NCBI RefSeq assembly: GCF_044324875.1
Contig: NZ_CP172185.1
Strand: one strand, 5' to 3'
Source of the DNA: Escherichia coli
GTDB taxonomy: Bacteria; Pseudomonadota; Gammaproteobacteria; Enterobacterales; Enterobacteriaceae
Length of the DNA: 64,000 bases
Part shown: piece after piece, positions 2,497-63,406 of the stretch
Position numbering within the stretch: the stretch's first letter is position 1
Layout: every line of letters starts with the position of its first letter
Translations under genes and position numbers: made by a program
Notes under the pieces: generated by a model
The model's database searches: none
What the model saw: only the letters and a program-made list of their open reading frames with translations
What the model was told of the DNA's origin: nothing

Positions 2497-2537
2497 ATAC
2501 AACATTATTGTGCATACAGATGAATTTTTATGCAAAC
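2497..2537 (-). promoter_or_regulatory. Putative tandem ARG boxes (ArgR autoregulation) in argR promoter
   Basis: TGCATA...TGAATTTTTATGCA palindromic motifs resembling the ARG box consensus, just upstream of argR. Confidence 0.45.
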
Positions 2538-5066: not shown

Positions 5067-6434
5067 TTAACGCATCAGCAGATAGATGCTTTCATTGCCG
5101 CGTACAATTTGCAGGGCGATGATGGCCGGTTTTGCCGCCAGCACTTTACGCATTTCAGCAATCGAGTTCACCCGATCGCGGTTGACGCCAATGATCACAT
5201 CGTCTTTTTGCAAGCCTGCCTGAGCAGCTGGGCTTCCTTTGACAACCTCATCGATCTTAATACCTTTGCCGCCATCTTTTAGCTGACCATCGCTCAACGT
5301 TGCACCTTCAAGCGCTGGCGTGATCATTTCAGCGCTGGCCGACGAAGAGGTGCTGGTATCGAGCGTCACTTCTACTTCCAGTGGTTTGCCGTTACGCAGC
5401 AGGCCAAGCTTCACTTTCGTGCCCGGCTCGGTGGTTGCGATACGAGAGCGCAACTCAGCAAAGCTATTCAGCGGTTTGCCGTTGAGGCTGGTAATAATAT
5501 CGCCCGCTTTGATGCCCGCTTTTGCCGAGCCAGAACCTGGCAACACTTCGCTGACAAACGCGCCACGCTGCACGTCAAGGTTGAAGGCTTTGGCGATATC
5601 GGCACTCATCTCTGTGCCTTTGATGCCTAACAGACCGCGTTTGATTTCACCAAAGTCGATAAGCTGCTGCGCCAGTGTTCGCGCCATATTACTGGGGATG
5701 GCAAATCCAATCCCGACGCTCCCGCCACCAGGCGCAAGGATTGCCGTGTTGATGCCAATTAACTCACCGTTAAGATTTAACAGTGCACCGCCGGAGTTAC
5801 CGCGGTTAATGGAAGCATCTGTCTGGATAAAGTTTTCCAGACCTTCAAGATTCAACCCACTGCGGCCTAATGCTGACACAATGCCAGAGGTGGCGGTTTG
5901 CCCAAGGCCAAATGGGTTACCGACCGCCACGGCAAAATCACCGACGCGCAATTTATCGGAGTCGGCAATAGCGATTTGCGTTAATTTGCTCGGGTTTTGA
6001 ATTTGCAACAGGGCGATATCGCTCTGGTCATCGCTACCAATCAGTTTTGCATCAAACTCGCGCCCATCATTGAGCTGGATACTGATTTTCTGTGCCTGAT
6101 TAATCACATGGTTGTTGGTAAGCACATAGCCTTTACTGGCGTTGATGATGACACCGGAGCCTAAACCTTCGAAGGGTTGTGCAGGTTGATCCGGTAAATC
6201 ATCACCAAAAAACTTTTTGAATTCTTCCGGGATTTTCTGTCCCTGACTGGCCGTTCCTTCCACCCGTACGCTCACCACTGCCGGAAGCACTTTTTCCAGC
6301 ATTGGGGCCAGACTGGGGAGAGGGGCCTGATCGGCAACCTGGCCTGGAATCGACGCAACGGCCTGAAATGACGCCGAGAGAGTTAACCCGACACTTAACG
6401 CTAATGCACTCAACAGCTGGGTTTGTTTTTTCAT
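5067..6434 (-). CDS. degQ: Periplasmic serine endoprotease DegQ
   Basis: ORF 5067-6476; start taken at internal ATG giving MKKQTQLLSALALSVGLTLSASFQAVA (455 aa). Confidence 0.93.
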   Translation of the reverse strand: MKKQTQLLSALALSVGLTLSASFQAVASIPGQVADQAPLPSLAPMLEKVLPAVVSVRVEGTASQGQKIPEEFKKFFGDDLPDQPAQPFEGLGSGVIINASKGYVLTNNHVINQAQKISIQLNDGREFDAKLIGSDDQSDIALLQIQNPSKLTQIAIADSDKLRVGDFAVAVGNPFGLGQTATSGIVSALGRSGLNLEGLENFIQTDASINRGNSGGALLNLNGELIGINTAILAPGGGSVGIGFAIPSNMARTLAQQLIDFGEIKRGLLGIKGTEMSADIAKAFNLDVQRGAFVSEVLPGSGSAKAGIKAGDIITSLNGKPLNSFAELRSRIATTEPGTKVKLGLLRNGKPLEVEVTLDTSTSSSASAEMITPALEGATLSDGQLKDGGKGIKIDEVVKGSPAAQAGLQKDDVIIGVNRDRVNSIAEMRKVLAAKPAIIALQIVRGNESIYLLMR

Positions 6435-13131: not shown

Positions 13132-13510
13132 TGTTGAACTCCGTGTCAAAAGAAAACGGTCAATCCCATAAACGGCAGATTGAAAACAATGATGTTATAT
13201 TTTTTGCAAGGCTATTTATGGTGCGGATGTCGTGTTTTTAATTGTAGATGAGGTGATTTTTCATTAAAAAATATGCGCTTATGATTATTTTGTAAGAACA
13301 CATTCATAATATTCATAATACTTGTTAATAGTCTTATGAATAATTCAATCGGGATGTTTTTATCTGCGTTACATTAATTTTTCGCAATAGTTAATTATTC
13401 AGTTAATTATAGTAATGATGAGGCACAAAGAGAAAACCCCGCCATTTCCCCCTACTTTCAATCCTGTGATAGGATGTCACTGATGATGTTAATCACACTG
13501 ACCTTACAGA

Positions 13511-20317: not shown

Positions 20318-21748
<1,431 letters not shown>

Positions 21749-26302: not shown

Positions 26303-26883
26303 ACGCGCGCCTCGCATTCGCCCCCTTGTTGTCCTTTTCGCATCGGTTAATACGGTGAAGAGGGGATCTCAATTACTGCATAAATATGATGAGCAGGCTG
26401 CTCATCCAGAAAGCTTCCAGCGGATTTCCAACTTATCGGGAAAGCTGATACAGGTCAAATGGCAAGCTTATTGGTACAGAAATGTGCTTTAGCGCAAAAT
26501 TCTTTATTAATTGGCTGAAATTAAAATAGATTTTCTATTTAAGGCTAAAAGGGAAGTCGTTAGAGAAACATCCAATTCCTGACTGTCATAAAGGCGTGTT
26601 AACCCTTATCCTGCCTTGAACTGACGAGAAAACCAGCATTTTATACTGCCTTAATTGGTAATGACGTTTCATGCTACTGTTTTTGCCTAAAATCCATAAG
26701 GAGATAAAAAAATCTGACACAAGATAAGCAAAAATGATTTATGTGATCATGCATGAAATTTCGGTAATTTTGATTGATTATGCAGTTGATAAAAGCGGGC
26801 CGGGACGATTGATCCAGGTCATCGCCGAATTGAGCTAAAAATGGCAGGCTTTGGCCTCTTTTCAAGGCGCGGTCTATCAGATT

Positions 26884-40867: not shown

Positions 40868-42467
<1,600 letters not shown>

Positions 42468-46024: not shown

Positions 46025-46252
46025 CTTTCCTCACTCCTTAAGTTAGTCGCTTTCATTCAGAACATTTCTTCTGTCGGGCATCACTATACTCCTGATGGCG
46101 TATTGTTCTAAAAAGTTCCTGTAAAGAGTGTGAATATTCAGAATATATAAAGATGTACAGCCCTATTATTCAGGTGTTATAGAGCTGAATAAGTGTTTTT
46201 ATGGAATTTACTAGAACCATCCCGCGCGCTGCGCGGGATGCGGGGGAGGGGA

Positions 46253-59319: not shown

Positions 59320-60945
59320 ATGACAGTATTCAACAAATTTGTTAGAAGTTTTAAATCTCATTGGTTGTTGTATCTTTGTGTTATTGTTTTTGGTATTACG
59401 AACTTAGTCGCCTCTTCCGGAGCGCATATGGTTCAGCGATTGCTGTTTTTCGTTCTGACCATCCTGGTTGTTAAACGTATATCATCCCTTCCGCTTCGCC
59501 TGCTTGTTGCCGCACCATTTGTGTTACTGACAGCGGCAGATATGAGTATTAGCCTCTATTCATGGTGTACCTTTGGTACAACTTTCAATGATGGATTTGC
59601 GATTAGTGTGCTGCAGAGTGATCCGGATGAAGTTGTCAAAATGCTGGGAATGTATATCCCTTATCTATGTGCTTTTGCCTTTTTATCCCTTCTTTTTTTT
59701 GCAGTAATAATAAAATATGATGTTTCCTTGCCGACAAAAAAAGTGACAGGAATATTATTGCTGATTGTCATTTCGGGAAGTTTATTTTCCGCTTGTCAAT
59801 TTGCTTATAAAGATGCAAAAAATAAAGAGGCGTTCAGTCCATATATACTAGCGTCGCGATTTGCTACCTATACGCCGTTTTTCAATCTCAATTATTTTGC
59901 TTTAGCAGCGAAAGAGCATCAAAGATTACTCTCAATTGCAAACACGGTGCCGTATTTTCAACTATCAGTCAGGGATACAGGTATTGATACCTACGTGTTG
60001 ATTGTGGGGGAGTCTGTACGTGTCGACAATATGTCTTTGTATGGATATACACGCTCTACGACACCGCAAGTCGAAGCACAAAGAAAACAGATCAAACTGT
60101 TTAATCAAGCAATAAGCGGTGCACCTTACACTGCGCTGTCGGTTCCCCTTTCTTTAACTGCTGATTCCGTTTTGAGTCATGACATTCATAATTACCCGGA
60201 CAACATTATTAATATGGCTAATCAAGCAGGATTTCAGACTTTCTGGCTAAGCTCGCAATCCGCTTTTCGGCAGAATGGTACAGCAGTTACCAGTATCGCC
60301 ATGCGCGCCATGGAAACAGTCTATGTCAGAGGATTTGATGAATTGTTGTTGCCGCATTTATCGCAAGCGTTACAGCAAAAGACGCAGCAAAAGAAACTGA
60401 TTGTTCTTCATTTAAATGGAAGCCATGAACCGGCTTGTAGCGCCTATCCGCAATCCAGCGCCGTGTTTCAACCGCAGGACGATCAGGATGCCTGCTATGA
60501 CAACTCCATTCATTACACAGATAGTTTGCTAGGTCAGGTTTTTGAATTATTAAAAGATCGCCGCGCCTCGGTCATGTATTTTGCCGACCACGGCCTGGAA
60601 CGCGACCCTACGAAGAAGAACGTCTATTTTCATGGAGGCAGGGAGGCCAGCCAGCAGGCATATCATGTCCCGATGTTTATCTGGTATAGCCCCGTTCTTG
60701 GGGATGGCGTGGATCGCACAACGGAAAACGATATCTTTTCCACTGCGTACAATAATTACCTTATTAATGCGTGGATGGGGGTAACAAAGCCGGAACAGCC
60801 GCAAACGCTGGAGGAAGTGATTGCACACTATAAAGGAGACTCACGGGTTGTAGATGCAAACCATGATGTTTTCGATTTTGTGATGCTAAGAAAGGAGTTT
60901 ACTGAGGATAAGCAAGGTAACCCCACCCCTGAAGGGCAGGGTTGA
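59320..60945 (+). CDS. yhbX: Putative phosphoethanolamine transferase family protein YhbX
   Basis: ORF 59287-60945 (TTG); ATG 59320 gives MTVFNKFVRSFKSHWLLYLCV (541 aa); membrane N-terminus plus sulfatase-like domain. Confidence 0.88.
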   Translation: MTVFNKFVRSFKSHWLLYLCVIVFGITNLVASSGAHMVQRLLFFVLTILVVKRISSLPLRLLVAAPFVLLTAADMSISLYSWCTFGTTFNDGFAISVLQSDPDEVVKMLGMYIPYLCAFAFLSLLFFAVIIKYDVSLPTKKVTGILLLIVISGSLFSACQFAYKDAKNKEAFSPYILASRFATYTPFFNLNYFALAAKEHQRLLSIANTVPYFQLSVRDTGIDTYVLIVGESVRVDNMSLYGYTRSTTPQVEAQRKQIKLFNQAISGAPYTALSVPLSLTADSVLSHDIHNYPDNIINMANQAGFQTFWLSSQSAFRQNGTAVTSIAMRAMETVYVRGFDELLLPHLSQALQQKTQQKKLIVLHLNGSHEPACSAYPQSSAVFQPQDDQDACYDNSIHYTDSLLGQVFELLKDRRASVMYFADHGLERDPTKKNVYFHGGREASQQAYHVPMFIWYSPVLGDGVDRTTENDIFSTAYNNYLINAWMGVTKPEQPQTLEEVIAHYKGDSRVVDANHDVFDFVMLRKEFTEDKQGNPTPEGQG

Positions 60946-60952
60946 TGTCGAA

Positions 60953-62311
<1,359 letters not shown>

Positions 62312-62349
62312 TTAATTAACTGATGATGAGCCTGGATTTCCGCTCTCAC

Positions 62350-62386
62350 TGAATTTTTATGCAAAATAAATGAGTTTTCATTTAAT
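62350..62386 (-). promoter_or_regulatory. Tandem ARG boxes (ArgR operator) in the argG promoter
   Basis: TGAATTTTTATGCA and TGAGTTTTCATTTAAT, 55-90 bp upstream of argG. Confidence 0.65.
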
Positions 62387-62521
62387 CATCTTTTATCGGA
62401 GACAGGAAGAGTTTAGTGTGTTTTTTGTAAAATAATGCGCTTAAGGGAGAGCAGGAGAAGGCAAAAGTATTCAACAAATGAAAGTGAACCGGATATTCAT
62501 TCACGTGATTAGCAATAAACG

Positions 62522-62551
62522 TTGACAAAATGTGGCATGGATCACTATAAT
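62522..62551 (+). promoter_or_regulatory. Consensus sigma-70 promoter of the metY-rimP-nusA operon
   Basis: TTGACA, 18-bp spacer, TATAAT, about 90 bp upstream of metY. Confidence 0.75.
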
Positions 62552-62643
62552 GCCTGCAGATTTTACGTCCCGTCTCGGTACACCAAATCCCAGCAGTATT
62601 TGCATTTTTTACCCAAAACGAGTAGAATTTGCCACGTTTCAGG

Positions 62644-62720
<77 letters not shown>

Positions 62721-62842
62721 CTTTCCCTTAGAGTCCTTTTTCAAATATACTGTGAAGACTTCGGCCTTCGTAGTGGGATTTGAAAAAATCCTTCTGGAAA
62801 GTGCTCCAGACCGCAGTTGCGGTTATAGGGTTCAGTTATATA

Positions 62843-62868
62843 AAGCCCCGATTTATCGGGGTTTTTTG
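62843..62868 (+). terminator. Intrinsic terminator/attenuator between metY and rimP
   Basis: AAGCCCCGATTTATCGGGGTTTTTTGTT. Confidence 0.8.
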
Positions 62869-62926
62869 TTATCTGACTACAGAATAACTGGGCTTTAGGC
62901 CCTTTTTTTATGTCTTGGGGGTGGGC

Positions 62927-63379
62927 TTGTCCACATTAGAGCAAAAATTAACAGAGATGATTACTGCGCCAGTTGAGGCCCTGGGTTTTGAACTGGTTGG
63001 CATCGAATTTATTCGCGGTCGCACATCCACACTGCGCATCTATATTGATAGTGAAGATGGCATCAATGTTGATGATTGTGCTGATGTGAGCCACCAGGTA
63101 AGTGCTGTGCTGGATGTTGAAGATCCCATCACCGTTGCTTATAACCTGGAAGTCTCCTCACCGGGTCTCGATCGCCCACTGTTCACGGCTGAACACTACG
63201 CCCGTTTCGTCGGAGAAGAGGTGACTCTGGTTCTCCGCATGGCGGTACAAAACCGTCGTAAATGGCAGGGCGTTATCAAAGCGGTAGACGGTGAAATGAT
63301 CACAGTTACCGTCGAAGGTAAAGATGAAGTGTTCGCGCTGAGTAATATCCAGAAGGCGAACCTGGTTCCCCACTTTTAA
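62927..63379 (+). CDS. rimP: Ribosome maturation factor RimP
   Basis: ORF 62915-63379; start taken at in-frame TTG 62927 giving (M)[27 protein letters not shown] (150 aa). Confidence 0.88.
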
Positions 63380-63406
63380 TAGTCTGGATGAGGTGAAAAG
63401 CCCGCG

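Follow-up and report, generated by a model that had tools for sequence, protein, structure and literature searches.

Tandem ARG boxes upstream of argG, argR and gltBDF in a 64-kb window of the Escherichia coli chromosome

The DNA analysed here, a stretch of 64,000 nucleotides of the E. coli chromosome that we refer to as the window, carries three tandem pairs of ARG boxes, located upstream of argG, gltBDF and argR. We are highly confident that these sites belong to the arginine regulon of E. coli as canonical ArgR operators; that ArgR actually binds and represses at them is taken from the literature. A previous, sequence-only reading of the window had described two sets of ARG boxes, at argG and argR, and had called them known biology. 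Both sets are present and the description as known biology is apt, as the two operators are identical to those of K-12 and their regulation is established; a third pair, upstream of gltBDF (26748-26786), had been missed. The operators and their regulation are already known, textbook E. coli, and there is no new biology in them. The value of the window is that of a calibration point, with three documented ArgR operators of ~31, 22 and 21 bits within 64 kb that can be used as a benchmark for motif callers. With a single-box matrix, only the best box rises above the background, while all three sites do so with a model of two boxes spaced by 2 or 3 bp; the use as a positive control for motif calling that had been proposed is thus supported by three graded sites, but it requires that tandem pairs are scored.

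The argG and argR operators and their setting

Several complete E. coli genomes contain the argG end of the window (60900-63400) with 100% identity, and 5,419 of 5,426 genomes match it with a query coverage of 80% or more; yhbX, argG, tRNA-Met and rimP are annotated there. The argG gene itself (60953-62296, minus strand) encodes argininosuccinate synthase (447 aa); its open reading frame scores 919 bits against the NCBIfam equivalog NF003779, and it is annotated as argG in the 5,419 E. coli genomes. The gene neighbours (argG, metY, rimP, nusA) are the same as in K-12. The divergent neighbour of argG is metY, the initiator tRNA-Met gene (62644-62720, plus strand; called by ARAGORN, and annotated as metY in K-12), and the control region is common to both genes; a CRP site shared in the argG-metY region is mentioned in PMC3105977.

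Some further features of this region were seen in passing. An open reading frame of 357 aa on the plus strand (61250-62323), antisense to argG, is a shadow of the argG coding region and not a gene. Upstream of metY, a sigma-70-like promoter on the plus strand (62522-62551) has a perfect 12/12 match, TTGACA-18-TATAAT, and a second promoter-like element, TTTGCA-18-TAGAAT (62599-62628, plus strand), lies just before the tRNA in a block that is strongly conserved in 13 genera; the metY promoters were detected by the sigma-70 scanner. Between metY and rimP, at ~62844-62867 on the plus strand, a GC-rich hairpin (GCCCCGAT...ATCGGGGT) is followed by a T run, which, read by eye, looks like an intrinsic terminator or attenuator inside the metY-rimP-nusA operon.

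At the other end of the window, the sequence-only reading had placed argR at 2004-2474, and this assignment is borne out: the open reading frame (minus strand, 156 aa) reaches 290 bits against the NCBIfam equivalog NF003457 (cut-off 194) and 165 bits against TIGR01529, and the encoded protein is identical to ArgR of K-12 MG1655. The domains PF01316 and PF02863 are present in ArgR homologues, and the genome does encode the cognate ArgR, with its winged-helix N-domain and its arginine-binding hexamerisation C-domain.

On the argG strand, the operator consists of ATTAAATGAAAACTCATT, the spacer tat and TTTGCATAAAAATTCAGT, with 51 nt between it and the ATG; this 18+3+18 layout occupies 62348-62386. 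The strong, promoter-proximal box (ACTGAATTTTTATGCAAA, which is TTTGCATAAAAATTCAGT on the argG strand; 62348-62365, minus strand) scores 19.8 bits and has one mismatch to the consensus WNTGAATWWWWATTCANW, while the distal box (AATGAGTTTTCATTTAAT, or ATTAAATGAAAACTCATT on the argG strand; 62369-62386, minus strand) scores 11.6 bits alone and has three mismatches. The operator had previously been given as 62350-62386; the tandem boxes are indeed there, but this start clips two nucleotides of the proximal box. The site is base-for-base identical to the K-12 argG operator (K-12 3318547-3318585), and the 639 nt around it differ from K-12 at 4 positions.

A further single ARG box has been described upstream of the argG operator. 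Two candidates for such a third box were considered and rejected: 62424-62441 scores 11.5 bits, which is at chance level, and is not conserved, and 62488-62505 scores 9.3 bits, again at chance level. Our literature search turned up no description of a third argG box.

The argR operator is made up, on the argR strand, of TTTGCATAAAAATTCATC, the 2-bp spacer tg and TATGCACAATAATGTTGT; it spans 2499-2536, and 24 nt separate it from the ATG. Its strong box (TTTGCATAAAAATTCATC; 2519-2536, minus strand) has two mismatches to WNTGAATWWWWATTCANW and with 15.8 bits is the third best single box in the window; the weak box (TATGCACAATAATGTTGT; 2499-2516, minus strand) scores 5.1 bits alone. The putative autoregulatory boxes that had been placed within 2497-2537 are thus enclosed by that interval, with 2 and 1 extra nucleotides at its ends. 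The operator is identical to the K-12 autoregulatory operator (3384641-3384678), as are the flanking 150 nt on either side. The argG and argR sets lie ~59.8 kb apart, in agreement with the separation of about 60 kb that had been noted.

Pair statistics and the operator upstream of gltBDF

Sites were scored with a symmetrised ARG-box matrix built from 14 boxes of K-12 loci outside the window (carAB, argA, argECBH, argD, argF, argI, artJ and artP); the K-12 control regions fetched for this purpose also included hisJ and astC, and none of the fetched regions lies inside the window. In the K-12 reference regions the two boxes of each pair keep a register of exactly 21 bp and lie 30-130 nt ahead of the start codon. 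Unsupervised EM on nine reference upstream regions returned the same motif with no consensus supplied; the two top matches of this de novo matrix in the window are the argG and argR boxes, with the proximal argG box ranking first. With the ARG-box matrix, argG, gltB and argR take the first three places in the 64 kb, both among single boxes and among tandem pairs.

These matches could in principle be fortuitous hits of a palindromic, AT-rich motif in intergenic DNA that is itself rich in A and T, with no regulatory meaning. To some extent the single-box results agree with such a view. Counting matches to WNTGAATWWWWATTCANW with at most three mismatches gave 11 in the window and 7.3 ± 2.6 in shuffles, that is, no enrichment. 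The best single box arising by chance in the shuffled windows scores ~14 ± 2 bits, and 15.8 bits was reached in 150 of 1000 shuffles (local composition preserved in 60-nt blocks); the weak partner boxes, with 5.1 (argR), 5.7 (gltB) and 11.6 bits (argG distal), fall below this ceiling when taken alone. The score of the proximal argG box, the best single box in 64 kb, was reached by 8 of the 1000 shuffles. A weight-matrix scan had been named as the check for the ARG boxes, and its outcome depends on what is scored: the tandem pairs pass, but the weak partners do not as single boxes. Since these partners lie below the single-box chance ceiling, a clean call of the sites requires a tandem-pair model.

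When pairs are scored, the chance view fails. The argG pair, with its 3-bp spacer, reaches 31.4 bits, a score met by none of the 1000 locally shuffled windows; the gltB pair (21.6 bits) was matched by 10 of the 1000 and the argR pair (20.8 bits) by 13, while the best pair in the shuffled windows averaged 10.7-12.6 ± 3 bits. With a 2- or 3-bp spacing, a mean of 0.023 pairs of at least 20 bits is expected per shuffled window; the real window has three, all of them upstream of known ArgR-regulon genes. Together with the conservation described below, where blocks at argG (13 genera) and argR (9 sequences) are retained while their flanks diverge, these pair statistics exclude pure chance, and the probability that we would still assign to it is negligible.

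Several other matches were set aside. Unpaired matches at 46125-46142, 41127-41144 and 6091-6108 are in the chance range, and those at 21089-21106 (13.6 bits, inside gltD) and 1810-1827 (in an AT-rich stretch downstream of argR) are within the shuffle range. The same holds for two weak matches between dcuD and nanR, 13332-13349 and 13386-13403, which are at a distance of 54 bp from each other.

The third pair, ACTGCATAATCAATCAAA att ACCGAAATTTCATGCATG on the gltB strand (26748-26786, minus strand), also has a 3-bp spacer and is the second best pair in the window. Its stronger box (26769-26786) scores 15.8 bits and is the second best single box. The gltB start, as annotated in K-12, is ~540 nt downstream of the pair, and if the gltB promoter is read as TTGACC-16-ATAAGT (26458-26431), the boxes occupy roughly -320 to -360. 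An ArgR DNase I footprint on gltBDF has been mapped at -361 to -318, and removal of the DNA upstream of -270 abolishes the effect of arginine (PMC1784095, Paul et al. 2007). The agreement between the position of the boxes and that of the footprint makes this pair the third documented ArgR operator in the window. The gltB-promoter primers used for ChIP-qPCR by Cho et al. (PMC4381063) match the window at 26332-26351 and 26450-26469.

Conservation across genera and overlap with putative promoters

For argG, an ArgG scan of species-representative genomes gave 80 loci, 78 of which were scored; the remaining two (L027 and L034) were left out as the match began inside the gene. A tandem pair with a 3-bp spacer and 26-34 bits was found upstream of argG in 20 loci, 19 from Enterobacterales and one from Tolumonas. 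These loci include Citrobacter, Pluralibacter, Phytobacter, Superficieibacter, Kluyvera, Enterobacter and Shimwellia, as well as Pectobacterium, Brenneria and Dickeya; Yersinia, Rahnella and Acerihabitans differ. The 55 loci from outside the Enterobacterales (mostly Betaproteobacteria, and also Acinetobacter, Neisseria and Pasteurellaceae) served as a negative control, and score at or below ~12 bits, most of them negative, with the exception of one Pasteurellaceae locus that has 29.6 bits and a 2-bp spacer.

In an alignment of the argG-metY intergenic region from 13 genera, a single invariant block, 62350-62394, stands between the ribosome-binding site and the metY promoter region; it consists of both argG boxes and an 8-nt extension, AAAAGATG, while the flanks are unalignable. 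The extension (62387-62394, minus strand) lies directly upstream of the distal box and outside of the 39-bp operator; in it, all 13 genera share AAAAG-TG, and 12 of them have A as the remaining base. It is possibly an UP-element-like part of the argG promoter. The distal box is itself nearly invariant in the 13 genera, more so than the degenerate ARG-box model requires.

The leader between the ARG boxes and the argG start varies in length. In Phytobacter (L014), Enterobacter sp. ENT03 (L017), Escherichia sp. ESNIH1 (L020) and Enterobacter sp. Bisph1 (L022) it is 30-50 nt longer; the extra DNA of L014, L020 and L022, the three that were aligned, has a common motif, GGCGnGGCTGTTAAGTCTCTCACCAT, that is absent from E. 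coli.

The argR comparison covered loci of Salmonella, a Scandinavium-type cluster, Pectobacterium, Serratia, Pantoea, Edwardsiella, Xenorhabdus and Morganella, all of which have kept the divergent mdh neighbour. The core of the strong box, TTG[C/A]ATAAAAAT[T/G]CA, is invariant in 9 of 9 aligned sequences, and so is the left half of the weak box, GCA[T/C]AAT; no other block upstream of the ATG is invariant. In E. coli, as in 8 of the 10 other loci scored, the argR pair scores best with a 2-bp spacing; three of these loci are near-identical places of one protein cluster. At the level of the aligned sequences, the 2-bp spacer at argR is conserved across Enterobacterales.

Both conserved regions coincide with possible promoters. 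Read by hand, the putative argG promoter (62353-62381, minus strand) has a -35 element ATGAAA (62381-62376), a 17-bp spacer and a -10 element AAAAAT (62358-62353), which would put the transcription start near 62346 and have both boxes covering the promoter. The sigma-70 scanner called no promoter over the argG operator, and the hand-read hexamers match at only 8 of 12 positions. At argR, the putative autoregulated promoter (2507-2535, minus strand, likewise hand-read) has TTGCAT (2535-2530), a 17-bp spacer and CACAAT (2512-2507), the latter being CATAAT in most other genera; the -35 element would then lie under box 1, and the -10 element and a start near 2500 under box 2. Here too the scanner called no promoter over the operator, and the proposed -35 element matches at only 3 of 6 positions. 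The only call in the argR region is an upstream TTGATA-16-TAACAT (2591-2564), for which the boxes would lie downstream of the start. The operators do sit upstream of arginine-regulon genes and close to their ATG, with promoter hexamers that are hand-assigned and weak.

This overlap raises the question of whether conservation of the blocks is mainly owed to core promoter or UP elements, or to binding by another protein (e.g. CRP in the argG-metY region), so that the likeness to ARG boxes is secondary and ArgR contributes little. The blocks do coincide with the only plausible -35/-10 hexamers of argG and of the proximal argR promoter, AAAAGATG and the distal argG box show less variation than the matrix would permit, and in box 2 of argR the conserved half is the -10-like one (CATAAT). 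On the other hand, the matrix that finds these blocks was trained on unrelated operators with non-homologous promoters, and both palindromic arms are kept in the strong boxes (TGCAT...ATTCA), from which recognition by ArgR emerges as the economical reading. The substitutions seen in the argG boxes across genera also stay among ARG-box variants, as in ATTCA to ATGCA, and both argG and argR are listed among the ArgR targets in the literature. Furthermore, an overlap of operator and promoter is needed for steric exclusion, so that promoter function and ArgR recognition are complementary rather than exclusive, and a promoter-only reading is separable from ArgR binding only in part. We therefore consider it very improbable that conservation here has little to do with ArgR.

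A weaker form of this idea, in which ArgR recognition is joined by something else, deserves somewhat more credit. The near-invariance of 62369-62394 in 13 genera exceeds what the ARG-box model demands, and because of this the segment might be under a second constraint, as a composite of UP element and -35 element or as the site of another factor that couples argG to the metY promoters. Likewise, the 2-bp spacer and the conserved half-box at argR might represent a detuned operator that sets the ArgR level. We regard these proposals as speculative and rather unlikely.

Proposed mechanism and comparison with known ArgR operators

It is established that an ArgR hexamer loaded with arginine occupies two 18-bp boxes in a cooperative manner, the boxes being 3 bp apart (2 or 3 bp), and that it contacts one face of the helix and bends the DNA; in biosynthetic operators the boxes overlap the -35 and/or -10 elements, and ArgR and RNA polymerase are mutually exclusive (PMC6640053, PMC4381063, PMC6245113). 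By the same mechanism, hexameric ArgR loaded with arginine would occupy 62348-62386 over the putative -35/-10 elements of argG and exclude RNA polymerase, and argininosuccinate synthase would be repressed when arginine is plentiful. At argR, the repressor would sit on 2499-2536 over the putative proximal promoter, leading to negative autoregulation. The third pair, which precedes the start site of gltBDF by about 320-360 bp, would act from a distance and cause a modest drop in transcription.

The operators of carAB P2, argA, argECBH, argD, argF and argI have the same motif, the same tandem layout and the same 21-bp register as the sites in the window. These canonical biosynthetic operators, which are part of the training data of the matrix, score 30-40 bits; argG with 31.4 bits is inside that range, while argR and gltB are weaker at ~21 bits, in line with weak autoregulation and with a roughly 2-fold repression of gltB. 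The argR operator differs from other ArgR operators by its spacer of 2 bp rather than 3 bp and by a very degenerate second box; this is a known peculiarity, the box spacing being given as "2 or 3 bp" (PMC4381063). The gltB pair differs from its K-12 counterpart (3354148-3354186) by one base, at the last, degenerate position of the weaker box, and the K-12 version scores 26.0 bits compared to 21.6 bits in the window. When compared to the site of Paul et al. (2007), the gltB operator of the window has two consensus-like boxes with a 3-bp spacer, in a position that fits the footprint.
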